Shown here: positions 1 through 58,705 of the stretch, piece after piece
Layout of the letters: every line of letters begins with the position of its first letter
Numbering within the stretch: position 1 is the first letter of the stretch
IMG/VR virus record: IMGVR_UViG_3300032280_000659
Coordinates: 32,001 to 96,000 of that record
Origin: a virus
Taxonomy: Duplodnaviria > Caudoviricetes
Reading direction: 5' to 3' (one strand)
DNA length: 64,000 bases
Made by a program: the position numbers and the translations under genes
Notes under the pieces: generated by a model
What the model was told of the DNA's origin: nothing
Databases searched by the model: none
What the model saw: the letters and a program-made list of their open reading frames with translations, nothing else

Positions 1-1
1 G

Positions 2-199
2 GCTATTCGACTCCACACTGGATGGGGTCTGAAAGAGGCCAAGGATTGGACTGACTATCTGGTTGGTGGCTGGCATTACGACAAGTTCGTTCCTGCCAAG
101 TCCGGGGCCAAGCAGAGTATCACTCTGAAAACGCCCGAAGCGGCAGAGGCACTGCTGCGTGATCTGGTGGGTTTGGGTTGTGAGGGTTATCTCTCATGA
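2..199 (+). CDS. 3' end of a ribosomal protein L7/L12 C-terminal-domain-like protein (partial, runs off window)
   Basis: Frame 2 from base 2 reads AIRLHTGWGLKEAKDWTD...EAAEALLRDLVGLGCEGYLS*, matching the L7/L12 CTD motif IR..TG.GLKEAK; not in the ORF track. Confidence 0.65.
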   Translation, partial: AIRLHTGWGLKEAKDWTDYLVGGWHYDKFVPAKSGAKQSITLKTPEAAEALLRDLVGLGCEGYLS

Positions 200-281
200 C
201 CTAAAGCCTTGTCCCTAAAGAACTTAGGGCGAGGCTGGGCCGCCAAATTTGATGTAAGTCTTTATCTGTAAACAACTTAGG
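200..281. repeat. Paired 11-7-11 palindrome element, copy A
   Basis: CCTAAAGCCTT-N7-AAGAACTTAGG (200-228), GC-rich 24-bp linker, TGTAAGTCTTT-N7-AACAACTTAGG (253-281). Confidence 0.85.
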
Positions 282-320
282 ACAAAATCAAAAATTTTTG
301 AGGCTCACTCAAGTTCCTGC

Positions 321-349
321 TTGACAATGACGATACTATACTGTAGAAT
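321..349 (+). promoter_or_regulatory. sigma70-type promoter with CGAT box
   Basis: TTGACA-atgaCGATactatactg(17)-TAGAAT; a second promoter TTGACA-17-TATACT starts at 411. Confidence 0.8.
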
Positions 350-487
350 GAGAGTATCACAAGTCAAGACCCCGCGACGATGCACAACATAAGAAACCAT
401 CACGACGGACTTGACAAGTGAGTATTAGTATCGTATACTGATACTGTCCGATTGAGTTAGTTTTACAATTACTTTGGAGGTTTTACT

Positions 488-748
488 ATGAAGGCTTTTA
501 GTTTCAATGTGACGATTGCTTCGGATGTTCTTGATACGGATGTGGTGGAAGATACGCTGCGTCAGGCTCTTGTCGATGGTCTGCCGAGCGAGACTCTTGC
601 TCTTGTCAAGGCCGATGGTGTGAAGGAGTATAGTGAGCAGGGTTGGAAGGTTGCTCGTAACCGTAAGTTCGGTATCGGTGTCAAGGAGGCCGGTGACGGC
701 CACAAGGCAACGAAGTCTAGCAAAGCAACAGAGGAAGCGGTTGCGTGA
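488..748 (+). CDS. hypothetical protein
   Basis: 86-aa ORF, strong GGAGG RBS, downstream of tandem promoters. Confidence 0.8.
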   Translation: MKAFSFNVTIASDVLDTDVVEDTLRQALVDGLPSETLALVKADGVKEYSEQGWKVARNRKFGIGVKEAGDGHKATKSSKATEEAVA

Positions 749-770
749 TAGACTCTAAGGAGTTATAATG

Positions 771-808
771 ACTGCGAGCCTCCACGGGACGCCGTGGGGG
801 CTTGCGGT
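771..808 (+). terminator. 17-bp GC-rich hairpin (terminator or processing site) upstream of tRNA-Arg
   Basis: ACTGCGAGCCTCCACGG-GACG-CCGTGGGGGCTTGCGGT; G-U pairs favour the + strand; weak U tail. Confidence 0.6.
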
Positions 809-814
809 ATTGAC

Positions 815-886
815 GGCCCCATAGTTAAATGGATATAATAAGTGACTTCTAATCTCTAGTTGCAGGTTCGATTCCTGCTGGGGCTA
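815..886 (+). tRNA. tRNA-Arg(TCT)
   Basis: Acceptor GGCCCCA/TGGGGCT, anticodon loop CT-TCT-AA, T arm GCAGG-TTCGATT-CCTGC; one mismatch in the anticodon stem; no encoded CCA. Confidence 0.88.
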
Positions 887-891
887 TTGTT

Positions 892-965
892 GGGGGTGTA
901 GATCAATTGGTTAGATCGCTAGCTTGTCACGCTAGAGGTTGCGGGTTCGAGTCCCGTCACTCTCG
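892..965 (+). tRNA. tRNA-Asp(GTC)
   Basis: Full cloverleaf, CTAGC-TTGTCAC-GCTAG anticodon arm. Confidence 0.93.
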
Positions 966-970
966 TTTGT

Positions 971-1052
971 TGTAAACCCTTACTACATAAGCACTTAGAG
1001 CAAATGCGGCGGGCCGGCCGCGTCGTAAGTCCTTATCTAGCAACAACTTGCA
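971..1052. repeat. Paired 11-7-11 palindrome element, copy B
   Basis: TGTAAACCCTT-N7-AAGCACTTAGA (971) and CGTAAGTCCTT-N7-AACAACTTGCA (1024); 53-bp offset; promoter TTGACT-17-TAGAAT at 1081. Confidence 0.85.
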
Positions 1053-1130
1053 TCAAGAATAATTTTTTAGAGTTTTTCGCTTGACTATGCCGATACCATA
1101 GTGTAGAATCGGTAGACACAGGAGAAGAAC

Positions 1131-1835
1131 ATGAAAACTGCTGATGGTAATGATAAGTTGGGTAAGGGTTGCATTGTGGTATCGCGTCCAGTGGGTGATA
1201 CTTGTCCGCCAGACTGCGACTATCTTGGCAACGGTTGCTATGCCGAAGCTACTGAAAACCAGTATAAAAATGCTCGTACTGCTGGTTTTGCTAATGTCGT
1301 GACCGAGAAGAATAAAATCCGTGCCATGATTCTGGATGCAAAGCGTCGTGAGAAGTCTATTCGTTGGCATGAACGTGGCGACTGGTTTCTCAATGGACAA
1401 CTTGACCTAGACTATGTTGCTAATGTAACGTGGGCTTGTGAGAGTATTCTTGCCGATGGTGATACGTTGCCCGATATGTGGTTTTATACTCATATCTACG
1501 ATGCTCGGCTTGTGAGTCTGGAAAAGTATATGAATGTATATGCTAGTGTGCATGATGATAATGATATGGGCGAAGCACTATCACAGGGTTTCAAGCTGTT
1601 TGCATGGTGTGACAGCGATATGAAGATTGCACCCAAGCGACCCAAGAGCAAAGCAAAGGCAGAAGCATGGCGACAAGCACTACCGAAGCTGGTGGTTCTC
1701 AATGCTACAAAGTTTGTAGTGTGTCCGGAAATCCGTCGTGGTCGTTCGGAAATCACTTGCACTGGTACTAAAGATAGTATATCATGTGACTTGTGTGTTC
1801 GTGGTTTGGCTAATGTCTTGTTTCCAGCCCATTGA
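1131..1835 (+). CDS. Cys-rich Gp88-like (radical-SAM-related) phage protein
   Basis: GNDKLG...TCPPDC...GCYA, RWHERGD, WFYTH and C-terminal CP...C...CDLC motifs typical of this phage family. Confidence 0.55.
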   Translation: MKTADGNDKLGKGCIVVSRPVGDTCPPDCDYLGNGCYAEATENQYKNARTAGFANVVTEKNKIRAMILDAKRREKSIRWHERGDWFLNGQLDLDYVANVTWACESILADGDTLPDMWFYTHIYDARLVSLEKYMNVYASVHDDNDMGEALSQGFKLFAWCDSDMKIAPKRPKSKAKAEAWRQALPKLVVLNATKFVVCPEIRRGRSEITCTGTKDSISCDLCVRGLANVLFPAH

Positions 1836-1846
1836 AAGGAATAAAA

Positions 1847-2416
1847 ATGAGCTACATTGGATTGTATGATGATGCAGGAAGTAAGAATGCTTTCTATATT
1901 ATCAAAGATAAAAAGATTGGTCGTAAACGGGTGGGCTTCAAAGAGTTTGAGAATGAGCAAGAGGCTAAGTTTGCCCATCGGGTTCAGTCTCATTTGGCAC
2001 AGTTTGATTTAGCCCCTATGGTATATGGGGATGTTGGTATGATTCGTAGGCATGATGGTGAGTTGACTGCTCATGGTTATTTGACCGAAGTGGCTCGACC
2101 TATGCCGGAATGTCATGATGATGAATATTGTGATGGTGAATGTTTTGAGAGTAGTTGTAAGAATGGTATTTCTATCATGGGAATAGTATCTGATTTAGAT
2201 GAGCATGGTTTATCATACAATGACGCTCATAGAGGAAACTTTGGTTATGTTCGACGCAAAGGATCATGGGTTCCGGTTGTGATCGACCTTGGTATTGAGA
2301 GTTTTACTGATTGGGATGAAGATATTTATGGACAGTTTGATTATAATGATGATTGTAATGATGATTATAATGGATGTAATTGTGTTCACTGCCAAAAATT
2401 TAGAGATAGGGGATAA
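1847..2416 (+). CDS. protein-kinase-like (PKL-fold) phosphotransferase
   Basis: GFKEF (beta3 Lys), DAHRGN catalytic loop, IDLG (DFG-like); acidic/Cys-rich tail. Confidence 0.6.
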   Translation: MSYIGLYDDAGSKNAFYIIKDKKIGRKRVGFKEFENEQEAKFAHRVQSHLAQFDLAPMVYGDVGMIRRHDGELTAHGYLTEVARPMPECHDDEYCDGECFESSCKNGISIMGIVSDLDEHGLSYNDAHRGNFGYVRRKGSWVPVVIDLGIESFTDWDEDIYGQFDYNDDCNDDYNGCNCVHCQKFRDRG

Positions 2417-2418
2417 TC

Positions 2419-2649
2419 ATGGCAAAGTATTATATCAAATGTGGGACACTAGAACTAATTTATTCCTGCAACAAATGTCCAAGGGATGCTGCGATGGATG
2501 CTATATGGGAAACAAATGAAAATGATACACTAGATGAACACTTCTATATAGATGAGCGTGGGTATAGAGACTATGTTACTGCTGATGGACATACTTGTGT
2601 ATTAAATACTGGTCATATTCTCATAGACGCAGGATGGAGTATTGAATAA
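2419..2649 (+). CDS. hypothetical protein
   Basis: 76-aa ORF with RBS, coupled to its neighbours. Confidence 0.7.
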   Translation: MAKYYIKCGTLELIYSCNKCPRDAAMDAIWETNENDTLDEHFYIDERGYRDYVTADGHTCVLNTGHILIDAGWSIE

Positions 2650-2819
2650 TGTGGATTATTATTGACGAGAAAAAGGTAAGACATTTGTGGGAATGTTCAG
2701 AATGTAATAGGCAAGCATATGTAGAGCCTTGGTACTATTCAGAGATGGGTACTCCATCGTGTGAAATTTGTGAAAGAGAGATGGAGTATATCAACACACA
2801 AATAGATATAGAGAGTTGA
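2649..2819 (+). CDS. small zinc-ribbon protein (56 aa)
   Basis: MWIIIDEKKVRHLWECSECNR...PSCEICEREMEY...; TAATG coupling; not in the ORF track. Confidence 0.65.
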   Translation: MWIIIDEKKVRHLWECSECNRQAYVEPWYYSEMGTPSCEICEREMEYINTQIDIES

Positions 2820-2901
2820 CGTAAACCCTTGCTACCATTGCACTTATGGCAAGCGGGGCCGCCCAACTTTGACGTAAGTCCTTAATCCACAAAGCTTTAG
2901 A
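2820..2901. repeat. Paired 11-7-11 palindrome element, copy C
   Basis: CGTAAACCCTT-N7-TTGCACTTATG (2820) and CGTAAGTCCTT-N7-AAAGCTTTAGA (2873); 53-bp offset. Confidence 0.85.
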
Positions 2902-2991
2902 GCAAATCCAAAAATCTTCTAAAGTTTCTACGCTGGATTGGTCGATAATAAGGATATGAGAACGACAAGAGAATCAACAAGGGGTGAGAGA

Positions 2992-3351
2992 ATGATCCAG
3001 TGGGTTGGAATTGTGATTACGATTTTGGGTCTGGCTTATACGGGAATCAAAGATTATCAAAAAGGTGATATTAAATTCCCTCCAATCCCACAGAAACCGG
3101 CCTTGACAAAGGTGGTTTATCCGGTACAATATTGTCTGATGGCTTACGATCCTAATGTTGACAAGGTTTTTTACTTACACGAAAATGGACAATGGCATGA
3201 TTACGCTCCAGAACAACGACGATATTCGACCACGCCGCAACCATATCAAAATCAAGGTCAAGAAACCGTGGGAAATTCCTACAGGACACAAGGAGCATCG
3301 GTATACCGTTATGGACAATCGCCCCAAGCGTCAGCGAACACGATCCGCTGA
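2992..3351 (+). CDS. membrane-anchored hypothetical protein
   Basis: MIQWVGIVITILGLAYTG N-terminal TM segment; ATG 2992 has a GGGGTG RBS. Confidence 0.65.
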   Translation: MIQWVGIVITILGLAYTGIKDYQKGDIKFPPIPQKPALTKVVYPVQYCLMAYDPNVDKVFYLHENGQWHDYAPEQRRYSTTPQPYQNQGQETVGNSYRTQGASVYRYGQSPQASANTIR

Positions 3352-3385
3352 AAAGCGTAGGGCTTGTCAAGATGATGACTATTGA
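3197..3385 (+). CDS. small basic protein overlapping the upstream gene
   Basis: KVKKPWEIPTGHKEH...MDNRPKRQRTR; promoter TTGACA-16-TACAAT at 3103 inside the upstream gene. Confidence 0.5.
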   Translation: MITLQNNDDIRPRRNHIKIKVKKPWEIPTGHKEHRYTVMDNRPKRQRTRSAEKRRACQDDDY

Positions 3386-3401
3386 CTATAATAGTTTGAT
3401 T

Positions 3402-3474
3402 GCCGATGTAACTCAGTTGGTAGAGTGTTAGTTTTGTAAACTAAATGTCGCCGGATCGTTCCCGGCCATCGGCT
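3402..3474 (+). tRNA. tRNA-Thr(TGT)
   Basis: GCCGATG/CATCGGC acceptor, TTAGT-TTTGTAA-ACTAA; atypical T loop ATCGTTC. Confidence 0.88.
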
Positions 3475-3475
3475 C

Positions 3476-3546
3476 TCCGGGATAGTGTAACGGTAGCACC
3501 AGAGATTTTGGTTCTCTTTGTCTGGGTTCGAATCCTAGTCCCGGAA
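3476..3546 (+). tRNA. tRNA-Gln(TTG)
   Basis: TCCGGGA/TCCCGGA acceptor (U1-A72), AGAGA-TTTTGGT-TCTCT. Confidence 0.92.
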
Positions 3547-3554
3547 TTAGATAT

Positions 3555-3626
3555 TGCCCGATAGCACAACGGTAGTGCGGCAAACTGTTAATTTGTAGGT
3601 TCTAGGTTCGAATCCTAGTCGGGCAG
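3555..3626 (+). tRNA. tRNA-Asn(GTT)
   Basis: TGCCCGA/TCGGGCA acceptor, GCAAA-CTGTTAA-TTTGT. Confidence 0.93.
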
Positions 3627-3629
3627 TTT

Positions 3630-3716
3630 GGAATCTTGGCCGAGTGGTTTAAGGCAGCGGTTTACTAAACCGCCGAGGGTTAAAATCCTCCGTGGGTTCG
3701 AATCCCTCAGATTCCG
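3630..3716 (+). tRNA. tRNA-Ser(ACT)
   Basis: GGAATCT/AGATTCC acceptor, G73, long variable arm, GCGGT-TTACTAA-ACCGC (anticodon 3664-3666). Confidence 0.88.
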
Positions 3717-3766
3717 CTAAAGAAAGGTCTTGACAACAGTCGATACTTACTGTAGAATACGAACAC

Positions 3767-3840
3767 GGGGCGTTGCAGCCGGTAGTTGCAATCACTCTTA
3801 TAAGGTGACCATAAGGTAGGTTCGACTCCTACACGCCCTA
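3767..3840 (+). tRNA. tRNA-Ile(TAT)
   Basis: GGGGCGT/ACGCCCT acceptor, TCACT-CTTATAA-GGTGA, GTAGG-TTCGACT-CCTAC; own promoter TTGACA-17-TAGAAT at 3730. Confidence 0.8.
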
Positions 3841-3871
3841 TTCGGAGGCTGATGTTTGGGTTACGATGGCT

Positions 3872-3943
3872 GGCCCTATAGTCTAACGGCTAGGACGACA
3901 GCCTTTCACGCTGTAGATTTGAGTTCGATTCTCAATAGGGTCA
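3872..3943 (+). tRNA. tRNA-Glu(TTC)
   Basis: GGCCCTA/TAGGGTC acceptor, ACAGC-CTTTCAC-GCTGT. Confidence 0.92.
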
Positions 3944-3950
3944 TTTAATA

Positions 3951-4157
3951 ATGTTTCATATTAGACATGATGTTGGCGATATGGTGTGGGTAGAAACTAC
4001 AGAGTATTCTGCTAGTAGAGCAAGAATTACCGGCACTCATACTGACGGGTACTATGTTAATTTCATAGATAAAACATCTGAACAAGAATCTTGTCACAAC
4101 TATCCTGTTATGAGTCGAAAGGTTAAGCCTATCGATTACATAGGACTAGAAAAATAA
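3951..4157 (+). CDS. small hypothetical protein (SH3/Tudor-like)
   Basis: 68 aa, HDVGDMVWV...ARITG...YYVNF beta-barrel pattern. Confidence 0.55.
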   Translation: MFHIRHDVGDMVWVETTEYSASRARITGTHTDGYYVNFIDKTSEQESCHNYPVMSRKVKPIDYIGLEK

Positions 4158-4230
4158 AATTTCTCAACTCTGACCACTTGACAGACCGATGATAGTATGG
4201 TAAGCTGTTGGCACACACAAGGAAACTAAA

Positions 4231-4395
4231 ATGAAGAATCTACGCATCTATGATATTGTAACTGAAGATGGTAAAACTCTTGCCGATATTCAACTTGCCA
4301 TGCAAGAAGATTTTGACTGGGTTGATATTTTTGATAAGTTATACGATATGACTAGTGAGAATGTTGAGAGTTATTCTTACGAAGAAGTTAAGTAA
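4231..4395 (+). CDS. small acidic hypothetical protein (54 aa)
   Basis: AAGGA RBS, promoter at 4178; not in the ORF track. Confidence 0.65.
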   Translation: MKNLRIYDIVTEDGKTLADIQLAMQEDFDWVDIFDKLYDMTSENVESYSYEEVK

Positions 4396-4401
4396 TAAGG
4401 C

Positions 4402-4474
4402 GGGCCTTTAGCTCAATTGGCAGAGCAAGGAGCTTTTAACTCTTAGGTTCAGGGTTCGAGTCCCTGAGGGCCCA
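4402..4474 (+). tRNA. tRNA-Lys(TTT)
   Basis: GGGCCTT/AGGGCCC acceptor, AGGAG-CTTTTAA-CTCTT. Confidence 0.93.
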
Positions 4475-4525
4475 CTTGACAATGTTGGTTGTTGGTGTAG
4501 AATAGAGGCATGAAAGGGATTTACT

Positions 4526-4699
4526 ATGCGTTATGAAGATTACTATGATGGATACAACTATAACTACGATGATCTCTTAGAGAATACTGAGGATCTCGGT
4601 TTAGATGAAGAACCTTGGATGCAGGATGCAGAAGATGACGAGGTTCCATCTTATGGTAAGAATTATTATTCAGATACCATTGAAGAAGATGACGATTAA
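4526..4699 (+). CDS. very acidic Tyr-rich small protein (57 aa)
   Basis: MRYEDYYDGYNYNYDDLLENTEDLGLDEEPWMQDAEDDEV...IEEDDD; own promoter at 4476 and an RBS. Confidence 0.65.
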   Translation: MRYEDYYDGYNYNYDDLLENTEDLGLDEEPWMQDAEDDEVPSYGKNYYSDTIEEDDD

Positions 4700-4794
4700 T
4701 TATTGTGGATGCTTCTAGGTGGGCCTAGACAAAATTATCTGGAATTATTTCCTATCATATGTAGAAGTACGTTCGAATCGTACCATCCACTTTT

Positions 4795-5286
4795 ATGTTT
4801 ACCATTGATAGCCACAGAAAAACTAATGATGGTAAAGTGATTCAGGGTTCTTCTCATACCTCTATTATTCTGAATCATCAGTATAGGAATAAAATTATTA
4901 TGGAGGCAGTAAAGGAGCTGCGTAGCCATAATTTTGATAGCATTGCTTGTTGTGGTACTAGTGGACTAATGGTTGTTCCACAGATAGCCGAGATACTAGA
5001 TAAGCATATTGTCGTGATTCGTAAACCAAGTGATAAACGTTATTCAATTTTTGATATAGAAGGAGTAGCACCTTATCATTATATTATTGTTGATGATCTT
5101 ACTTGTTCAGGAACCACTATAAAACTAATTCAGAATACTCTACATAATGAATGTCCACGCGCTATATGCGTAGGAGCCTACTTCTACTTACCGGATGAGT
5201 GCGCTTATTCTGGTAAAGAAGGTCATGAGCTTTTTCAAAAGGACTTCGGCTTCCCTGCTCTAAACTCCTTTCCACAAAGGACTTAG
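4795..5286 (+). CDS. type I phosphoribosyltransferase
   Basis: PRPP-binding motif YIIVDDLTCSGTT; IVVIRK. Confidence 0.8.
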   Translation: MFTIDSHRKTNDGKVIQGSSHTSIILNHQYRNKIIMEAVKELRSHNFDSIACCGTSGLMVVPQIAEILDKHIVVIRKPSDKRYSIFDIEGVAPYHYIIVDDLTCSGTTIKLIQNTLHNECPRAICVGAYFYLPDECAYSGKEGHELFQKDFGFPALNSFPQRT

Positions 5287-5340
5287 GGCAAGGCCGCCCG
5301 GCCCCGGTCGCCGTAAGTCCTTGTCTGACAACCACTTGCG
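5259..5340. repeat. Paired 11-7-11 palindrome element, copy D
   Basis: TCTAAACTCCT-N7-AAGGACTTAGG (5259) and CGTAAGTCCTT-N7-AACCACTTGCG (5312); promoter TTGACA-17-TAGAAT at 5369. Confidence 0.85.
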
Positions 5341-5440
5341 TCACGAAATTTTTTCTCAAAGTTTCCGCTTGACAGTGACGATAACATAGTGTAGAATCAG
5401 TGAAGTAGAACGATTGAACAGCAACACGAAAGGGATGATT

Positions 5441-6391
5441 ATGGCTCATGCAGTTGAACAGATGATGTTTGTTGGTGCGACCCCGTGGCACGGTCTGGGG
5501 AACCAACTCGACGAGGCTCCAACGGTTTCGGAGGCGATTACTGCCGCCGGTTTGGATTGGGAAGTTGGCTTGAAGGATCTGGTCACGGTGGACGGCCAGC
5601 CCGTTCCGGCCCGTGCGACGTTCCGCAAGACTGACGATAGCATCTTGGGCGTTGTCGGCCCCCGCTACACCCCGCTGCAAAACAGCGAGGCGTTCGACTG
5701 GTTCCAGCCGTTTCTCGACGCTGGCGAGTGCAACCTGCACACTGCGGGTTCTTTGCACAGCGGTCAGAAGGTCTGGGTGCTTGCCCAGTTGAACCGCAGC
5801 AATAGCGAGATCGTGAAGGGTGACGAGGTTGGGAAGTTCATTCTTCTCAGCAACTCGCACGACGGCACGACCGCTATCCGTGTCGGCTACACGCCGATCC
5901 GGGTTGTGTGTGCAAACACGATGGCAATGGCCCACAGTAAGGGTAGCGGTTCCAAGCTGATTCGGATTCGACACACACGTTCCAGCAAGAGCAATCTGGA
6001 AAACGTGAGGGATATCATGGACAACATCAACATGGAGTTTGAAGCGACTGCGGAGCAGTTCAAATTCCTTGCGTCCAAGAACTTCAATCAGGCTGACGTT
6101 CGCCGGTATGTCAAGGTGATGCTTGATATCGACGGCACGCCTGACGATCAGATCAAGACTCGTACCAGAAATATCATGGACGAGATTCTGGCTCTGGTCG
6201 AAGGCCCGAAGCAGAGTGCGACGGGGGTTCGTGGAACTTGGTGGGCCGCGTACAACGGCTACAACGAGTACCTGAATTACAACAAGGGTCGCACCGAAGA
6301 TAATCGGCTCGACTCTCTCTGGTTCGGCCAGAATGGGGTTGACAACTCCAAGGCTCTGACCACTGCCTTGGATTTCGCCAACGCACTGTAG
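5441..6391 (+). CDS. DUF932 / TIGR03299-type phage-plasmid protein
   Basis: MAHAVEQM...PWHGLG...AGLDWEV...YTPLQN...TAGSL...NSHDGT...PIRVVCANT...GTWWAAYN; markedly GC-rich. Confidence 0.9.
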   Translation: MAHAVEQMMFVGATPWHGLGNQLDEAPTVSEAITAAGLDWEVGLKDLVTVDGQPVPARATFRKTDDSILGVVGPRYTPLQNSEAFDWFQPFLDAGECNLHTAGSLHSGQKVWVLAQLNRSNSEIVKGDEVGKFILLSNSHDGTTAIRVGYTPIRVVCANTMAMAHSKGSGSKLIRIRHTRSSKSNLENVRDIMDNINMEFEATAEQFKFLASKNFNQADVRRYVKVMLDIDGTPDDQIKTRTRNIMDEILALVEGPKQSATGVRGTWWAAYNGYNEYLNYNKGRTEDNRLDSLWFGQNGVDNSKALTTALDFANAL

Positions 6392-6411
6392 TTTTCCTTT
6401 CGTGGCGTGGC

Positions 6412-6451
6412 AGGGGAGGCCGTCCCTCAGTGGTGGGGGGCGGCTTCCTCT
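6412..6451 (+). terminator. 18-bp hairpin terminator after DUF932
   Basis: AGGGGAGGCCGTCCCTCA-GTGG-TGGGGGGCGGCTTCCTCT followed by ATTTCT. Confidence 0.65.
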
Positions 6452-6473
6452 ATTTCTAAACAACAGGAGATTG

Positions 6474-6555
6474 CGTAAGTGCTTGCTACATAAGGACTTA
6501 CGTCAAGCCCGGCCCGGCAATTTAGTCCTAAGTCTAATGAAATCAATGACTTACA
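6474..6555. repeat. Paired 11-7-11 palindrome element, copy E (solo sites also at 6610-6638 and 6761-6789)
   Basis: CGTAAGTGCTT-N7-AAGGACTTACG (6474) and CCTAAGTCTAA-N7-AATGACTTACA (6527); 53-bp offset. Confidence 0.85.
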
Positions 6556-6680
6556 TCAAATAGCCTATAGACAACCATGCGAACTGCCGATATACTATAG
6601 GGTGGTGGTCGTAAGTCTAATGCTGCCAATAGGTTAGAGAAAAATAGTAAAAGTAATTTATAATTGTAATAGGGTAAATT

Positions 6681-6726
6681 TGTCTTAGCTTATCCTGCGG
6701 GTTTGCCGGTCATGCCGACAGTCAGC
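6681..6726. repeat. 46-bp tripartite motif, copy 1
   Basis: TGTCTTAGCTTA-N7-GGTTTGC-N13-AGTCAGC. Confidence 0.8.
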
Positions 6727-6938
6727 CAGATTTCTACATATATTAGATAGTCTGATGAATCATAAGTCTAGTATCCATAGGGACTTGCGTCAAATAGTAA
6801 CATGTGGTATACTGTCTGTAGGAGAGAGGCTATTAGATAAAGTAATAGTCTGTTGAGATTTAGTCTCAATTATTCTCAATAAAAATTATAAGCACTCTAT
6901 ATATTATAGGTCATAGTCTGGCCTATTCTGGGGTCCTT

Positions 6939-6984
6939 TGTATTACCTAATCGTCCGGGTTTGGCGGTCGTGGTGATAGTCAGC
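6939..6984. repeat. 46-bp tripartite motif, copy 2
   Basis: TGTATTACCTAA-N7-GGTTTGG-N13-AGTCAGC. Confidence 0.8.
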
Positions 6985-7017
6985 GAAAATTAGGGGTCTT
7001 TTGATTATAGGTGATTT

Positions 7018-7254
7018 ATGCAGAAGGAAAAGATAAAAGTCCGTGTGACTAATAAGAATCGGGCAAAGATTATATATAACCATGCTCAGAATGTTGCTGA
7101 GAATATGGATATGGGTACTGTTATTGCTTTTACTAGGGATACTATTATTGAAAGTTTTAGTAAATTAAGTAATGTGGAAATAACTAAGATAGTAGGCGAA
7201 TATAATCCTCAAATACTGGAGAATGTAAATGACAACTATAATAGTTACGAATGA
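7018..7254 (+). CDS. small helical phage protein (paralog family with 7229 and 8115)
   Basis: Shared pattern NR..I...MD...N..I..Y.P..LEN. Confidence 0.7.
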   Translation: MQKEKIKVRVTNKNRAKIIYNHAQNVAENMDMGTVIAFTRDTIIESFSKLSNVEITKIVGEYNPQILENVNDNYNSYE

Positions 7255-7429
7255 AAATAGAGAGAAAATAACTGATATCTATTGTAACAGACTGTTGGAT
7301 GATATGGACTTTAGCACATTGTACTGTTTTGCTTTTGATATGTTGAAGGATAATAAGAGTGGGTTGACTAATAAAATGCTGGAAGATCAAATCGTTGACT
7401 ACTACCCTGACCTCTTGGAGAATTACTAA
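7229..7429 (+). CDS. small helical phage protein (paralog)
   Basis: NREKITDIYCNRLLDDMDF...IVDYYPDLLEN. Confidence 0.7.
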   Translation: MTTIIVTNENREKITDIYCNRLLDDMDFSTLYCFAFDMLKDNKSGLTNKMLEDQIVDYYPDLLENY

Positions 7430-8114
7430 TGGAAGTAGAAATTAGTAAACAAGAAGCTTGGAAACTGTTAGATGCTATTAGTGCCTATAAGAAAGATTAT
7501 ACTGTTACTGGCGCTGTTAGTAAAACATTTGATAATATTACTAAGAAACTAAAAGAAATAGTAAAGGAATAAAATGACCTATATTTTCTGGCTAATTGCA
7601 TTCTTTTGCATGAGTCTTATTTACTATATTAAGAGTAATGAGTAATGGTGTATAAAATTAGTTAGTGATCTTTGGGGTGTCCTAATTTCGGAGGGCTTTA
7701 TGAAAGCTCTATGGAAAATAATTCGGGCTATTTTTTGCGGATGTTTATTCGCATGGATCGGGGTCTCTATGATGGAAACGGAACTAGAGATTCTTACTCA
7801 TAGTTCTTATGCTAAGTATATGGCTCATGATTTGTTCTATGGTTATTTATCAATCAGAACTTTTTATGAGAATATAGTATATGTGGCTGTTTTAAATTTT
7901 ATAATGGGTTTTTCAATAGGAATAATTTGGAAACCCGGCAGTTTAAAGATATAAGTATTAGACTATCTGATTAAAATTTATTTGATCCTATCTACTCTCA
8001 TGGTATAATACGGTAGTCAACGAAGCCGATAGTCAAGCAAATACTGAGGTATTTTGCGGGACTTTTGGAATCATGGGCAAGAAGTATTTTAACTTTTAAA
8101 CCATGAGGTGATTT

Positions 8115-21418: not shown

Positions 21419-24346
21419 AATGAATAATACTGAACCAACCAGATTTAGCAAAGAATTTCTTGAGTCTGCCAGAGAATGTGCATCATACATTTTCGATAGT
21501 GAAACTGAACAAAATTCTTACCAGAACTATATTGAAGAAGGACATGATCCTAGAGAACATATTATGTATCATGCTGCTATTATACTAGGTAAAGATGATC
21601 AATTTGATGTTGATATTAGTGAATATGAAAATTTGGAGGATCAAGTATGAGATGGGTTTTTATTGTGGCTAGAAATTCTACCATTGAGAAAGTTAAAGTT
21701 TTTGATGATTATTTTCAGGGAGAGATTCATACTAATGAGTATCTTAGGATAGGATTTGGGGTCAATGGGGTTGATTTTCCAGAATATCGTAAAGGAGAGT
21801 ATTATCAAAGTGCTGATTCTGGAGTTAGTATTGGTCTTTATAAGGACAATACCTAAAAATTCAAGTTGACCGCTGAGTATGACGATGTATAATGCAAGGG
21901 TATCGAAAAGTTATTTTAATAAACACAAACCGGAGTTTTATTATGAGCGTTTTTAAGATTAGTGTTTTGGTTGCTGCTTTTTTGAGTTTTGCTCTTAGTG
22001 TTGGTCTTTGGTTTAGCGGTATGCCAGAGGCTAAAGATAGTGGACTTTTTGTAGGTTTGTGGGTTCCTAGTATTCTTAGTCTTGGTAATCTATTCTCTTA
22101 TAAGGGAGATTAATCATGGAAATGTTTATTTTTTTTGCAGGGCTAATAATTACTCTGATTGTTAGTTCTGGTTTAGCTATTAGTATTTTGTTTTTGGGTG
22201 ACATGAATCCAGACTCTAGGAAAAATCGAAGAGTTAATTATACATTGTCTGATCTGAAAAACAGTGACAATCTTAAAAAACTCATAGCAGAAATAAAAGA
22301 TTACAAAGAAAAAGTTGGCTGTTGACAAACAACGATACAGTAGTATACTAGGGCATACCTTGGAGAAATCAAATGAGTCCAACAGTTCAACAAAAAGTTC
22401 AAGATTTGATTGATAAGTATTTTATTGGTGAGAATAATTACTATCTGCTTATCAAACAAGATAACCTAAATAAATTCTTGTCAGAATACAACAAGATTAT
22501 TATCACTCGTACAGTTGAAGTTTGTGGTCTACACTAATTATTGGAGAAAATATGACAGTTCAACAGCTTCGTAATAGCGGATATAAGGTTAGGGTTCTTC
22601 ATAATCGTCTTTACAATGGATATTATAAGTGGCAAGTGGGTAGCAAGCCTAGTGGTGAACAGGGTTATGGGCCTATTGATCCAGATACTAAAGGTGGATC
22701 AACCCAAATTATAATTGATGGCCCATCTGGTGATCATTATGATGGACTCGCTATTTGTAGTAAGAAAGAGAACTATAATAAAAAGCTGGGCGTTAGAATT
22801 GCTCTTGGGCGTTGTAACATTAAACAGCCAGCATATATTCCAGTCGAGGCAGAAAATGACTAAAGAAGAAAAATTGGAAGAAATTAGGCGAATGTGCTTG
22901 GGTATTATGCAAAACTGGAGCCAAAAGTCTAGTTATAATGATCCTTATGAAGATGGAAAAATTGTTGGTCGTTCAACTTTAGCTGAAACCATTTTAGATA
23001 TCATTAATGAATCATCAAACACCTAATACCATTATAAGTTTGATTGGTGGGCCTTTGTGCGGCGAAAGTGTCACCATGAAAGGTGGTAGAGTTCCTAATA
23101 GTATTCCAATGTTTTCAGAAGATAAATTTTATACATACAATCTTATTATAAACCAAGAAGAAGATTGGACTAACATTTATTATGAATATTCTAATGAAGT
23201 AATGGAGGTCACTACTAATGGCAAAGAGTTTTGAAGATTTGATGAAGAAAACTTGTTCCAAAGATGTTATTATTGCAGGATATAAAAAAGCAATGAATTA
23301 TTGGGCGGAATATATTGGTCTTAATGAAGCACAACAGACAACAGGGACTATTTCAACTACAAAAATTTTTAGACCATACACTATTACTACCAAAACGGTT
23401 AGTCATTATAGTAAACCAAAGAGGCGTGATCCTGCACGACACTGGAAATGAAACTATACCAAGAAAAGACGGTGAAGGTTCTTGATCAAATAATGTGCGA
23501 TATTTGTGGTAAAAATTGTACTGATGATTTTTACAATAACCACGAAAATGCAACCCTTGAAGCAAATTGGGGATATAGCACCAGCAGAGATGGAGACAGA
23601 TTTGAAATTCATCTTTGTGAAAATTGTTTCAGTGAAACTCTAGGATTTCTAAGACATAAAAGAAAAAGTGTTTTGGGGCCATTTAATTATCCTTATGATA
23701 ATGATCCTTTAAATGGTTATAGACATGATATTTAGTATAGTTTGAATTGACAGAGATGTTTCACTATTTATAATAAATTATTCTCATACCATACATAATT
23801 TAAAAAGCTATAAAAAAGACATGATCTTAAATGAATACTTAATAACACAGTTGGATCATACTGTAATGATCTTATTGTCTATAGATAATAAAGAAATATT
23901 TCAATACAATTACTGGAACTGGATTAAACAAACAGAGCAATTACATCTATTGAATGACAACCTAACTATTGGTCATATTATTTATACTACAGGAATTGTA
24001 GAGAACAATGAAGATGGTAGTATGAGTTATAAGAGCGAACAGCATCCTAAAAATTGCACAATTAACTTTTATTTTGGAAAAGCTATTCCGTAATGAAGAT
24101 TGTTATGAGAATGAAGGGAGTATGTAAATAATATGTCAGAAATGGCACCACTTAAATATTTATGCTATGATAAAAATCAAAGAAAACATATCATTAGTAT
24201 TTGTGATAATGAAGAAATTAAAAAACATATACTTGATCTATATAATTTGATAGAGTATCAGCTTATAATGATACATGAACAAAGAAGCGAAATTATCGCT
24301 AAAGAACATAAAAAAGCATGGAAACATTACGACAAAAAAGACAGTG

Positions 24347-56026: not shown

Positions 56027-58705
56027 ATGAAGTTGGCAGACAGAACGATTGAGACTCACAGCGTTGGCGTTGCAAGTAGGAATCAGTTCAATATTGCTCA
56101 GACGAGCAAAATGTTTAAAATCCTTTCAGATTCTCTTTATTCTGATAAGGTAATGGCTGCAATCCGTGAGCTTTCTACTAATGCTTATGATAGCCATATC
56201 TCTGCCGGAAATAAGAACTCCTTCAAAGTTACTCTGCCTACTGCTGCTAATCCCACCTTTATGGTTAGAGATTATGGTACTGGTCTTAGTCAGGCTGATA
56301 TGGAGGACTTGTATACCACCTATGGTGCTTCTAACAAAAATGATAGCAATGATTTTGTTGGTTGTCTTGGTCTAGGATCTAAGAGTCCCTTTGCATATAC
56401 CAAGAGCTTTACCACTGCATCATACTATAATGGCAAGAAGTATACTTATATTGCAGCGATTGACGATAGTGGTGTTCCTACTCTGAATCTTTTTAATACT
56501 TCAAATACGTCTGAGCCTAATGGTCTTGAGATTAGTTTTGCTGTTAAGCAGCATGACTTTCAAGAGTTTACAGACAAGGCTAAGAGAATCTTCCACTATT
56601 TTCGCATGAAACCCATACTTGAGGGTGGTATCGGAAATAATCTTCAAGATCATAAGTATAGCAATACTAATATCATCATTAGTGGTGAAGGTTGGAGGGT
56701 GTGTAGACTCAATAATGATAATAACTATTTCCCTAATGGTTATCATCGAATTGATAGTGGTATCGTAGCTATCATGGGTAATATCGCCTATCCTGTTCAG
56801 ACTGCACAGATTGTGGGTCAAGAAAAGGAAGAAATGCCCGATCATATCCAGAAGTGGAATAGAGCTTTCCAGAAAGCAGATATTGATTCTTGGAAGAGTT
56901 TTGTTGGTGAGATTCTTAACTCTGGCCTTTATCTTGAGCTTGATTTTGGTATCGGTGAACTGGAAATGGATGTTTCCCGTGAAGGTTTGCAGTATACCAA
57001 GGATGTTATCAAGACGCTGCGTAAAAAGACTCAAGAAATTTACATGGAAATGAAGGAAGAATTCTCCAAGAAAATTCAAGCTTCCAAGAACAAAGTAGAG
57101 GCAATTACTTCATACTATACTATGAATGAATTGGCTGGCGGCTGGGGTGTTGGTGCAACTTGGACTGATCCCAAGGGTAAAGATCATCCTATTAACTCTG
57201 GCAATGACTTGGAATATAAAATTCCTGCTGGTAAGAGTCTGTACGTTTTTAATTATAAGACTGCTGGCTATCGTTCTCGTCGCCAAGTTGCTCTGACGGA
57301 CAGAATCCATCACGAAACTCTTACTGGTAAAGGTTCCTATTATTGGAATAACCAGAAGAAGAAGGGCACAATGGCTTTCTTTGTGTGCGATGTTGCGAGT
57401 GAAGAAAGTGCCAAGAAGATTCTCACAAGATATTGCAATGCTAATGATTGTTTTGCTTATCTGATGATCGACACTAAGGATCATACAAAAAGCAATACAG
57501 GTTTTGATCAACTGATCGAAGATGTCGGGGCTGAAAATCTGCTTAAGGTTTCAGACTACAAGCATCTGACACAAAGCTCTGGCCCAAGAAAGTCTTACAG
57601 CAGAAATTCTAATGGTAGTGTTAGCGATCAAGATGTATTCTTTATTCACGGTTATGATAAGGATAGTAAGCAGATTACGAATCCTTACAATGACGCTACA
57701 TATCTAAGAATTCTTTCAGAAGAACAGCTAGAGAATTTTCTTGAACAAGACGAGATTGTTTATGTTCCCATGTTGAGATATGGAACAGAACCTGAGTCTG
57801 GTTGTCCAGAGATTGCTGGGATTAGTAAAACTCTCCAAGAAGATACTCTAAAAAGCATAACTAAGGACTTGATTGGCAATAGTAAGATTTATGCTATCAA
57901 AACAGCTTTCCTTAAAAAGCTTGAGAAGGATGGCTATAATCTTGTTAACTTCAATGATTTTTTGAAGCGTCAACTCAAAATTGTAACACAAAAGCACTTT
58001 AAGAATCTTGGCTCTATCAATAAGCTTGTTGAATATTGTAAGAAGGAATACGCAACAGAAGAGAAGAACGGTGGTGGATATAGGTATTATCAGCATGGAA
58101 CAACAGATAAGCAGTTTATGTTTCATATTCTGAATATCTTTGGCCTGGATTATGATAAGTTTATTAACAACAAGGCTCTTGTAGATTGCTTAAATAAAAC
58201 TATCCTCACAGAGTTCTTTGCTAATACTGTTCATCTAAGCCCCTTTAATATTCCACGGTTCAATCAAACAGAATATCTTTCTCATATCTCTAAGCTTATG
58301 AAAGAGGCTGGGATCGAAGATGTTGACGGTAAGGAGATTCGTAATGCTAACTTGGCTTATAATACCTTAACAAGAATGATTTCTCAAAATTTGTATTGTG
58401 GTCAAGCAGATGACACGGAGAGTTATCTCAAAATTATCCGTGGGACTTCTGCTCAAGATATTAAGACATGGAAAATCTCTGAGATTAGGGAAAAGATTAA
58501 GACAGAAGTAGACAAGAATCCTATGCTCAAGGTTATTATGGGAAATCATCAAGTATCAGGCAATCTGGTAGATCTTAAATCTAATCAGAATCCTATCATT
58601 GAAGATCGCTCATATTATGGAAAGCAGAGTAGGGATTGGGTCGAGCAGATGAGTCAGGAGAATATTGACCTGTTTAGGATTCAGTTGAGTAGTTTGATCA
58701 AGTAG
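56027..58705 (+). CDS. rIIA: T4 rIIA-like protein (GHKL ATPase N-terminus)
   Basis: MFKILSDSLYSDK..AIRELSTNAYDSH, VRDYGTGLS, GLGSKSPFAYT, VSREGLQY; directly upstream of rIIB. Confidence 0.88.
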   Translation: MKLADRTIETHSVGVASRNQFNIAQTSKMFKILSDSLYSDKVMAAIRELSTNAYDSHISAGNKNSFKVTLPTAANPTFMVRDYGTGLSQADMEDLYTTYGASNKNDSNDFVGCLGLGSKSPFAYTKSFTTASYYNGKKYTYIAAIDDSGVPTLNLFNTSNTSEPNGLEISFAVKQHDFQEFTDKAKRIFHYFRMKPILEGGIGNNLQDHKYSNTNIIISGEGWRVCRLNNDNNYFPNGYHRIDSGIVAIMGNIAYPVQTAQIVGQEKEEMPDHIQKWNRAFQKADIDSWKSFVGEILNSGLYLELDFGIGELEMDVSREGLQYTKDVIKTLRKKTQEIYMEMKEEFSKKIQASKNKVEAITSYYTMNELAGGWGVGATWTDPKGKDHPINSGNDLEYKIPAGKSLYVFNYKTAGYRSRRQVALTDRIHHETLTGKGSYYWNNQKKKGTMAFFVCDVASEESAKKILTRYCNANDCFAYLMIDTKDHTKSNTGFDQLIEDVGAENLLKVSDYKHLTQSSGPRKSYSRNSNGSVSDQDVFFIHGYDKDSKQITNPYNDATYLRILSEEQLENFLEQDEIVYVPMLRYGTEPESGCPEIAGISKTLQEDTLKSITKDLIGNSKIYAIKTAFLKKLEKDGYNLVNFNDFLKRQLKIVTQKHFKNLGSINKLVEYCKKEYATEEKNGGGYRYYQHGTTDKQFMFHILNIFGLDYDKFINNKALVDCLNKTILTEFFANTVHLSPFNIPRFNQTEYLSHISKLMKEAGIEDVDGKEIRNANLAYNTLTRMISQNLYCGQADDTESYLKIIRGTSAQDIKTWKISEIREKIKTEVDKNPMLKVIMGNHQVSGNLVDLKSNQNPIIEDRSYYGKQSRDWVEQMSQENIDLFRIQLSSLIK

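Follow-up and report, generated by a model that had tools for sequence, protein, structure and literature searches.

An 82-bp element built of two imperfect palindromes is repeated 13 times, always in the same orientation, within a 16-kb early region of a virus genome (Duplodnaviria; Caudoviricetes). Five of the copies lie in the stretch of DNA analysed here (the window), which comprises 64,000 nucleotides and corresponds to bases 32001–96000 of IMG/VR virus record IMGVR_UViG_3300032280_000659 (114,486 bp, linear). Judging from sequence comparisons, we consider it somewhat more probable than otherwise that this element is a promoter-coupled platform for protein binding. The evidence is its anatomy and pattern of conservation, its helical phasing with early promoters, the lack of a signal of RNA structure, and the position of exchange points within it. 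Coordinates are those of the window unless given as genome coordinates, which refer to the whole record. Full-text literature searches on the motif, on the topic, and on phage sigma54 enhancer arrays retrieved no description of the element.

Anatomy and conservation of the element

Elements A (200–281; genome 32200), B (971–1052), C (2820–2901), D (5259–5340), and E (6474–6555) all lie on the plus strand where the initial annotation had placed them, and have scores of 89.7, 92.4, 88.4, 82.0, and 73.5 bits, respectively, with a position weight matrix (PWM). Each contains two imperfect palindromes with 11-bp arms and a 7-bp spacer (11-7-11), the starts of which are 53 bp apart and the arms of which are complementary at 5–10 of 11 positions; in Element A these are palindrome 1 (200–228) and palindrome 2 (253–281), separated by a GC-rich linker (229–252). 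The 24-bp linkers are 73–78% G+C, compared with ~40–45% in the flanks, and retain their length and composition but not their sequence. Elements A and C begin, as had been described, on the base after a stop codon—TGA in both cases, which in C ends a 56-amino-acid (aa) open reading frame (ORF)—and this TGA belongs to the conserved TTGA flank of the half-site. Element D overlaps a stop, with the TAG of the upstream ORF lying inside half-site 2, and Element B follows the tRNA-Asp gene by 4–5 nt, and not by the 6 nt given initially. Element A has orthologues in at least 10 relatives, with a common CCTAAAGCCTT..AAGAACTTAGG signature, and Element E is the last and most symmetric copy of the array, scoring 64.2 bits on the minus strand. 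The element as a whole is roughly two-fold symmetric, with minus-strand PWM scores of 46–64 bits. The modules between elements do vary in base composition (35 to 58% G+C).

A PWM derived from the copies—a profile scan had been proposed in the initial annotation—identifies exactly 13 sites in the 114-kb genome, with scores of 74–99 bits (genome 22529, 23503, 25236, 25941, 26818, 27769, 28839, 30942, 32200, 32971, 34820, 37259, and 38474), and nothing else above 15 bits. Half-site matches with two or fewer mismatches number 46, compared with 13 for a reversed control, and are clustered at genome 22.5–38.6 kb. Two solo palindromes on the plus strand had also been claimed, and these fare less well: shuffled genomes yield 1–7 matches of at least 12 bits, such that the first (6610–6638; 16.2 bits) is a possible but weak, degenerate single palindrome barely above the shuffled background, and the second (6761–6789), with arms complementary at 6 of 11 positions and a score below 12 bits, is statistically unsupported.

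A short pattern scan of IMG/VR recovered 168 distinct copies from 34 other uncultured viral contigs of 1–232 kb. The distribution of the array was compared in four relatives with a completeness of at least 91% and in one 141-kb contig from a metagenome-assembled genome (MAG); each of these five has a single cluster of 6–17 copies spanning up to ~19 kb, with no copies outside the cluster and no matches to a reversed-pattern control. Among 185,579 species genomes, the double-palindrome pattern is present in only 10 MAG contigs, several of them from lake MAGs (Lake Lanier, for example), and in no isolate genome. These 10 are mis-binned phage contigs with inconsistent taxonomic labels, and the matches were rejected as a clue to the host. 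Positions 1–8000 have no megablast match among cultured phages, and the best tblastn match of the terminase to a cultured phage is at most 26% identical, to Bacillus phages; on these comparisons there appears to be no close cultured relative from which annotation could be transferred.

The 168 distinct copies define a half-site that, extended outward, reads T-n-G-n-C-G-T-A-A-G-T-C-C-T-T. In all four half-sites A4 and A5 are 100% conserved and T10/T11 are conserved at 92–100%. The inner half-sites (2 and 3) are nearest the consensus and the outer ones deviate from it at fixed places: half-site 1 often has AAAC or AAAG where the inner half-sites have AAGT, and half-site 4 has TTG where they have TCC. 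None of 336 palindromes consists of perfectly matching consensus half-sites, and the 7-bp spacers are nearly free of information. Between orthologous copies, half-sites are 77–86% identical and spacers 46–61%, and 42 copies from six genomes can be aligned without gaps over all 82 columns, with a mean column identity of 75%.

The distance between palindromes is 53 bp in 175 of 176 cases in the main family. Sister lineages have the same half-sites but their own fixed distances of 52, 50, 48–49, or 42 bp, and their linkers are often palindromic. The initial statement that the sequence drifts while the spacing never does is thus true within the main family but not across sister lineages, and the argument from a spacing of about five helical turns is weakened in the same way; the distance is a lineage-specific constant and not a universal five turns.

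Coupling to sigma70-type promoters

Three of the window elements are followed on the plus strand by an A/T-rich tract and a near-consensus promoter. These are TTGACA-N17-TAGAAT at 321–349 past Element A (282–349 with its tract, which resembles an upstream-promoter [UP] element), TTGACT-N17-TAGAAT at 1081–1109 past Element B (1053–1109 with its tract), and TTGACA-N17-TAGAAT at 5369–5397 past Element D (5341–5397 with its tract); the gaps of 39, 28, and 28 bp to the −35 hexamer reported initially are exact. Element E is followed after a gap of 12 bp by a weak plus-strand promoter, TAGACA-N17-TATACT (6568–6596), and no consensus promoter is present downstream of Element C. Computed from the hexamer positions, the palindrome centres of Element D would lie near −78 and −131 relative to the predicted start site.

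An A/T tract and then a strong TTGACA-N17-TAnAAT promoter are found downstream of 128 of the 168 copies. The distances from element to −35 hexamer have peaks at 17–19, 28–29, 39–40, and 50–51 bp, with a Rayleigh p of ~1e-21 at an 11-bp period, a statistic that overstates the independence of the copies owing to their shared descent. This is addressed in part by a comparison of orthologous copies, those with the same downstream gene family, whose distances differ by 0–2 bp in 180 pairs, by 8–12 bp in 77, and by 20–21 bp in 11, intermediate values being rare. The distance between element and promoter therefore evolves in whole helical turns, a constraint at the level of DNA and the face of the helix. 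Element and promoter, together ~150 bp, moreover come and go jointly between conserved genes that otherwise adjoin each other.

We also considered the half-site itself as a promoter, its TTGAC flank resembling a −35 box, but rejected this candidate because the consensus has no −10-like hexamer 16–18 bp away. Separately, a conserved CGATA(A/C) box is present in the 17-bp spacer of the early promoters at 321–349, 411–439, 1081–1109, 3730–3758, 4476–4503, and 5369–5397, and occurs also in promoters that have no double palindrome, such as those inside the tRNA cluster.

DNA site versus RNA structure

An inverted repeat that sits between a stop codon and the next promoter is in the usual place of a terminator, and the elements do fold better than mononucleotide shuffles; some also have sigma54-type start sites at their edge. 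Each of these features could suggest that the element acts as RNA, whether as a terminator, an RNase III-type processing site, or a 3′ or 5′ stabiliser hairpin at the borders of transcription units. The alignments give this very little encouragement. All of the top pairs by mutual information are adjacent columns, and covariation between arms is absent. When partners were permuted among sequences, the observed pairing proved to be at or below the shuffled level, both for two local hairpins (70.9%, against 71.6% in shuffles; 482 of 500 shuffles at least as high) and for one long hairpin (71.9%, against 73.9%; 500 of 500), and compensatory changes are fewer than in the shuffles. Exchanging half-site 3 between copies does not weaken the fold.

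Predicted structures are equally uninformative as to a common RNA. The minimum-free-energy folds of the five window copies differ in topology, with z-scores from −0.25 to −2.8, and no intrinsic terminator is predicted on the plus strand at any element; a T-rich tract lies more than 15 nt past half-site 4 and no T-run follows directly. The linker was tried as a mini-terminator or hairpin and rejected, as main-family linkers are no more stable than shuffles, and Rfam recognises tRNAs only, with no match to the element. Furthermore, mismatches are conserved at fixed positions and helical phasing with a promoter is a property of DNA. We therefore regard an RNA function as very improbable. Fixed conserved bases amid free positions, together with conserved mismatches, have the look of a duplex recognised by a protein.

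Exchange of gene units at the elements

The initial annotation had offered as one of two interpretations that promoter-bearing early-gene cassettes are shuffled at the elements. Gene-family maps of 34 loci show that module order is largely conserved, with some rearrangements, and these do involve the elements. Homology blocks between relatives resume 3–8 bp before the element start, with 12 left endpoints falling in the −20 to 0 bin, and 28 of 138 block endpoints lie within the element ±10 bp, compared with 8% expected. The 56-aa CxxC...CxxC ORF at 2649–2819 is absent from five relatives, and the indel, which brought a different palindrome 1 along with it, ends exactly at the TTGA flank of Element C. 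The tRNA-Asp gene (891–966) is missing from one relative (L105), and there the edge of the deletion is the start of Element B. One copy in another relative (L081:7630) is a chimera of two non-allelic copies, its palindrome 1 matching the copy at genome 25236 at 27 of 29 positions and its downstream part matching the copy at genome 26818. Across all pairs, palindrome 1 is co-inherited with the upstream gene, and the linker and palindrome 2 with the downstream gene. These comparisons show that exchanges occur inside elements, and ordinary homologous recombination between repeats would be enough to explain them.

Exchange of this kind has been described for the promoter-early stem-loop (PeSL) cassettes of T4-type phages (Arbiol et al. 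2010, PMC2839356; Comeau et al. 2014, PMC4122927). Like the element, PeSLs are repeated intergenic motifs that directly follow stop codons and combine an A/T tract with a strong sigma70-like early promoter; they too are concentrated in a plastic part of the early genome, rich in small ORFans, where relatives exchange gene units by homologous recombination. The genes neighbouring the elements here are likewise mostly ORFans by Pfam and PHROGs. The second component of a PeSL, however, is a terminator, formed by a G/C stem-loop whose position varies (PMC2839356, PMC4122927), unlike the rigid 82-bp double palindrome of four half-sites, with its invariant bases, helical register upstream of the promoter, and lack of selection for a hairpin.

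One alternative is that the element is a mobile regulatory cassette of the PeSL kind to which no dedicated protein binds; it would persist within a duplicated terminator/promoter unit, and its main importance would be to provide portable homology when modules are shuffled. Gain or loss of element and promoter as a unit, the enrichment of homology endpoints, and the L081:7630 chimera, with halves that follow their respective flanking genes, are all as this explanation would have it. It does not account for positions that stay invariant in 168 copies and in lineages with only 25–50% identity between proteins, for which hitch-hiking is no explanation; a conserved stem-loop or terminator, a defining part of a PeSL, is absent; and module order is mostly syntenic. 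As a complete account we think it improbable. The cassette interpretation thus holds only weakly, in the manner of PeSLs—elements are sites of gain, loss, and rearrangement of gene units, and one chimera is seen, but there is no recombinase, the spacers are the least conserved part, and order is largely syntenic—and the initial annotation as a whole is partly supported. Exchange points within the elements would extend the idea of regulatory repeats as seams of modular evolution beyond T4-like phages.

The 11-7-11 layout, which is present in all copies, was correctly likened to the core site of a tyrosine recombinase, in which inverted arms of 11–13 bp flank a crossover spacer of 6–8 bp. With exchange points inside elements, this layout raises the question of whether a site-specific recombinase acts at the element, as at integron attC, dif, or loxP sites, to excise and insert promoter-bearing cassettes in a programmed way. 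Such sites resemble the element in their 11-7-11 inverted repeats, their place right after a stop codon, and the gene units that they bound. As had been noted, there is no recombinase in the window; nor is a tyrosine recombinase (PF00589) present elsewhere in the record or in the four relatives that are at least 91% complete (0 of 5 records), and no serine recombinase or Y1 transposase is encoded. The spacers, which would have to match for strand exchange, are only 36–42% identical when non-orthologous copies, taken from different genomes and flanked by different genes, are compared; within this genome, too, they differ among the 13 copies. The junction in the single chimera is at no fixed spacer position. 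The cassettes moreover bear their own promoters and are mostly in the same order. The element is of fixed length and has neither an integrase nor a signal of single-strand hairpins, whereas attC sites are variable in length, fold as single strands with extrahelical bases, act with IntI and attI/Pc, and belong to promoterless cassettes. The missing recombinase genes and the variable 7-bp spacers make a mechanism of the integron or lox type unlikely, and we give scarcely any weight to programmed recombination at these sites.

A selfish miniature repeat, mobilised by a transposase in trans, would also be intergenic and multicopy, and could have the rough two-fold symmetry and terminal inverted half-sites that are evident in the minus-strand scores of 46–64 bits. 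Repetitive extragenic palindromes (REPs), the bacterial interspersed mosaic elements (BIMEs) composed of them, and Correia repeats are chromosomal and dispersed in both orientations, and are spread by REP-associated tyrosine transposases (RAYTs) or other transposases. They share with the element pairs of imperfect palindromes, a linker of defined length, and an extragenic position, and some carry promoter elements or IHF sites. The element differs from these in forming a single oriented phage cluster that is coupled to promoters, with no RAYT. There are no direct target duplications, the TTGA and TCAA flanks being inverted and part of the palindrome; all copies have one orientation in one cluster, are stable at orthologous positions in relatives that are 70–90% identical, and are phased to promoters; and no transposase is encoded. 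We consider a MITE (miniature inverted-repeat transposable element)-, REP/BIME-, or Correia-like origin to be most improbable.

Sigma54-type boxes and the elements

Three near-consensus sigma54-type boxes (TGGCAYG-N4-TTGCT) are present in the genome, where ~0.4 are expected, at genome 21544, 22633, and 23635 (L010:1530–1544, 2619–2633, and 3621–3635). All are on the minus strand with a T-rich upstream flank in common, and they adjoin or lie just beyond the left end of the array; those at genome 22633 and 23635 would fire leftward into the first two elements, toward the structural genes. Minus-strand ORFs at genome 22.5–24.6 kb, which would make the leftward boxes ordinary gene promoters, were considered and rejected, since codon-position substitutions in two stretches with alignable relatives (genome 23018–23443 and ~23719–24175) favour the plus-strand ORFs.

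Across the fetched loci there are 87 sigma54 boxes, compared with 5–11 for control patterns (~10-fold enrichment). A palindrome lies 8–52 nt downstream of 37 of the 87 and upstream of 19, with none for the controls, and sister lineage L131 has nine boxes, each 23–62 bp from a palindrome. A box faces 13 of the 168 copies in the main family, 2 of the 13 in this genome, and most copies in some sister lineages. In two sister-lineage viral contigs (L036 and L070) we also noted tandem TGGCACG-N4-TTGA/C boxes every 26–34 bp, adjoining double palindromes of the 42-bp distance, an arrangement that is odd for promoters.

These boxes raise the possibility that the element is an upstream or downstream enhancer for a host sigma54 activator (bacterial enhancer-binding protein, bEBP), with sigma54-type promoters as its primary targets and the sigma70 link secondary in this lineage. 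Enhancers of bEBPs are usually paired dyad sites (NtrC, XylR, PspF), and those of FlrC are downstream of the start site. The element resembles the known systems (NtrC at glnAp2, XylR, PspF; FlrC) in its paired dyads of fixed spacing and, at some copies, in adjoining TGGCAC-N5-TTGC boxes, and the enrichment of boxes next to palindromes, the nine boxes of L131, and the three at or just beyond the left array end are all in its favour. The known enhancers, however, are 80–150 bp upstream, whereas most copies here have no sigma54 box and the element is within a few tens of bp of the start; the usual gap of 8–18 bp would put it at the transcription start itself, unusually close for an enhancer. Moreover, the helical phasing is with the sigma70 promoter, and so few copies face a box in the main family and in this genome. 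This record and four near-complete relatives all lack a bEBP gene, RuvB being the only PF00158 protein found, so that a host activator would have to be borrowed. We regard this explanation as unlikely overall, but as a serious sub-hypothesis on the identity of the binding protein.

Search for a binding protein

Pfam and PHROGs scans of ~190 ORFs revealed no helix-turn-helix (HTH), ribbon-helix-helix (RHH), or HU/IHF-type protein, with the exception of one sigma-factor-like ORF, and HU/IHF (PF00216) is absent from the phage record. The exception, a 207-aa ORF on the minus strand (L009:12688–13311; genome 12688–13311), matches Sigma70_r2 (Pfam, 1.4e-5) and the PHROG 'RNA polymerase sigma factor', and is common to six sister-lineage loci, where it is near their double palindromes; it is probably, on these similarities, a phage-encoded sigma factor. 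An 88-aa early protein is the one most widely shared with sister lineages, where its family is zinc-ribbon-like. It has no functional match in Pfam, PHROGs, or the ESM Atlas, and nothing specific ties it to DNA binding.

The initial annotation had also noted a fit of the half-sites to the core site of IHF (WATCAANNNNTTR). As a general feature this is not supported, for the half-sites conserve TAA-N4-TTR, in which the base preceding AA is T instead of C, and a full match to the IHF consensus is found in Element E alone. The half-site consensus is nevertheless constant across lineages with proteins that are only 25–50% identical, a pattern that a conserved host factor fits no less well than a phage factor.

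Proposed mechanism

The second of the initial interpretations, a four-half-site architectural or activator platform, fits the base conservation of the half-sites, the lack of covariation between arms, and the promoter register in helical turns. From these patterns we infer protein binding, its stoichiometry, and the sign of its regulation, as follows. The 82-bp element would be a docking platform, in double-stranded DNA, for a sequence-specific protein; each 29-bp palindrome, extended to ~37 bp as TTGACGTAAGTCCTT-N7-AAGGACTTACGTCAA, would bind one two-fold-symmetric unit, and the G+C-rich linker would hold the two bound units at a fixed distance of 53 bp. Upstream of a strong sigma70-type early promoter and its UP-like A/T tract, the platform occupies a defined face of the helix, with palindrome centres near −78 and −131 or one to two turns further. 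The bound protein would act on RNA polymerase simultaneously at ~13 early transcription units. Since these promoters are close to consensus as they stand, timed shut-off or insulation of units seems more likely than activation. The platform at the array's left end would be located at ~+1 to +100 of the leftward sigma54-type promoters and may gate those as well. The ~150-bp repeat of element and promoter would also serve ectopic homologous recombination of gene units, a role that the exchanges described above demonstrate in part.

Several observations weigh against a protein-binding platform. The scans described above revealed no protein of a classical DNA-binding type apart from the sigma-factor-like ORF; the near-consensus promoters with UP tracts have no obvious need for an activator; about one quarter of the copies have no strong sigma70 promoter; and the shifts of 1–11 bp in sister-lineage distances argue against one universal face-to-face geometry of two bound units. 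To these should be added the shared descent of the copies, noted with the phasing statistics, and the estimated completeness of the 114,486-bp record, which is 78%.

A partial parallel is the early/late switch of phage phi29, in which protein p4 holds RNA polymerase from an upstream site. There too, imperfect inverted-repeat sites are upstream of strong early promoters and adjoin a divergent late promoter, and by analogy a protein bound upstream on a defined face could either activate or over-stabilise RNA polymerase. Phi29 has a single switch region, unlike the 13 copies here, and the sequence and geometry of its sites are unrelated; no p4-like protein was found.

If a protein does bind, a single operator–regulator pair would control the whole early programme, and this would offer an experimental way into the transcription timing of phages that have yet to be cultivated. 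With hundreds of copies, the element organises the early region of widespread uncultured lake phages of 126–230 kb. More speculatively, one host or phage factor may set the transcription programme of a freshwater phage clade, insulating or timing the ~13 sigma70 units and gating sigma54-type promoters at the array edge and in almost every sister-lineage unit, with the distance between dyads tuned by lineage (53, 52, 50, 48–49, and 42 bp). We hold this to be possible but rather doubtful; if true, it would be a new logic of phage promoter architecture and the first phage group with systematic use of host sigma54. The link to sigma54 boxes does hint at phage use of the host enhancer-dependent polymerase, which to our knowledge is barely documented for phages.

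Other features of the genome

The structural genes (large terminase, head and tail proteins) are transcribed leftward at genome 0.5–22.5 kb, and almost all genes beyond genome 22.5 kb are oriented rightward. Nine tRNA genes (Arg, Asp, Thr, Gln, Asn, Ser, Ile, Glu, and Lys) are located at 815–4475, with sigma70-type promoters of their own scattered among them. Between Elements D and E is a DUF932 gene (5441–6391; Pfam, 2.2e-49) that is 52–58% G+C in a neighbourhood of ~35%, and which by its composition looks like a horizontally acquired unit. Immediately upstream of Element A, a 127-aa early protein (L005:2321–2704, ending at window position 199) that is present in at least 13 related loci contains a stretch like the C-terminal domain of ribosomal protein L7/L12, although the match is below the cut-off (Pfam E-value, 1.8e-4). 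Among 91 ORFs (window 1131–29913 and L010), one small ORF matches the Thoeris inhibitor Tad3 (Pfam, 1.1e-34), and others match Thy1 and UvdE. Finally, the first ~490 residues, about half, of an 892-aa protein encoded at 56027–58705 are homologous to the rIIA lysis-inhibition proteins of T4-like phages (32–38% identity).

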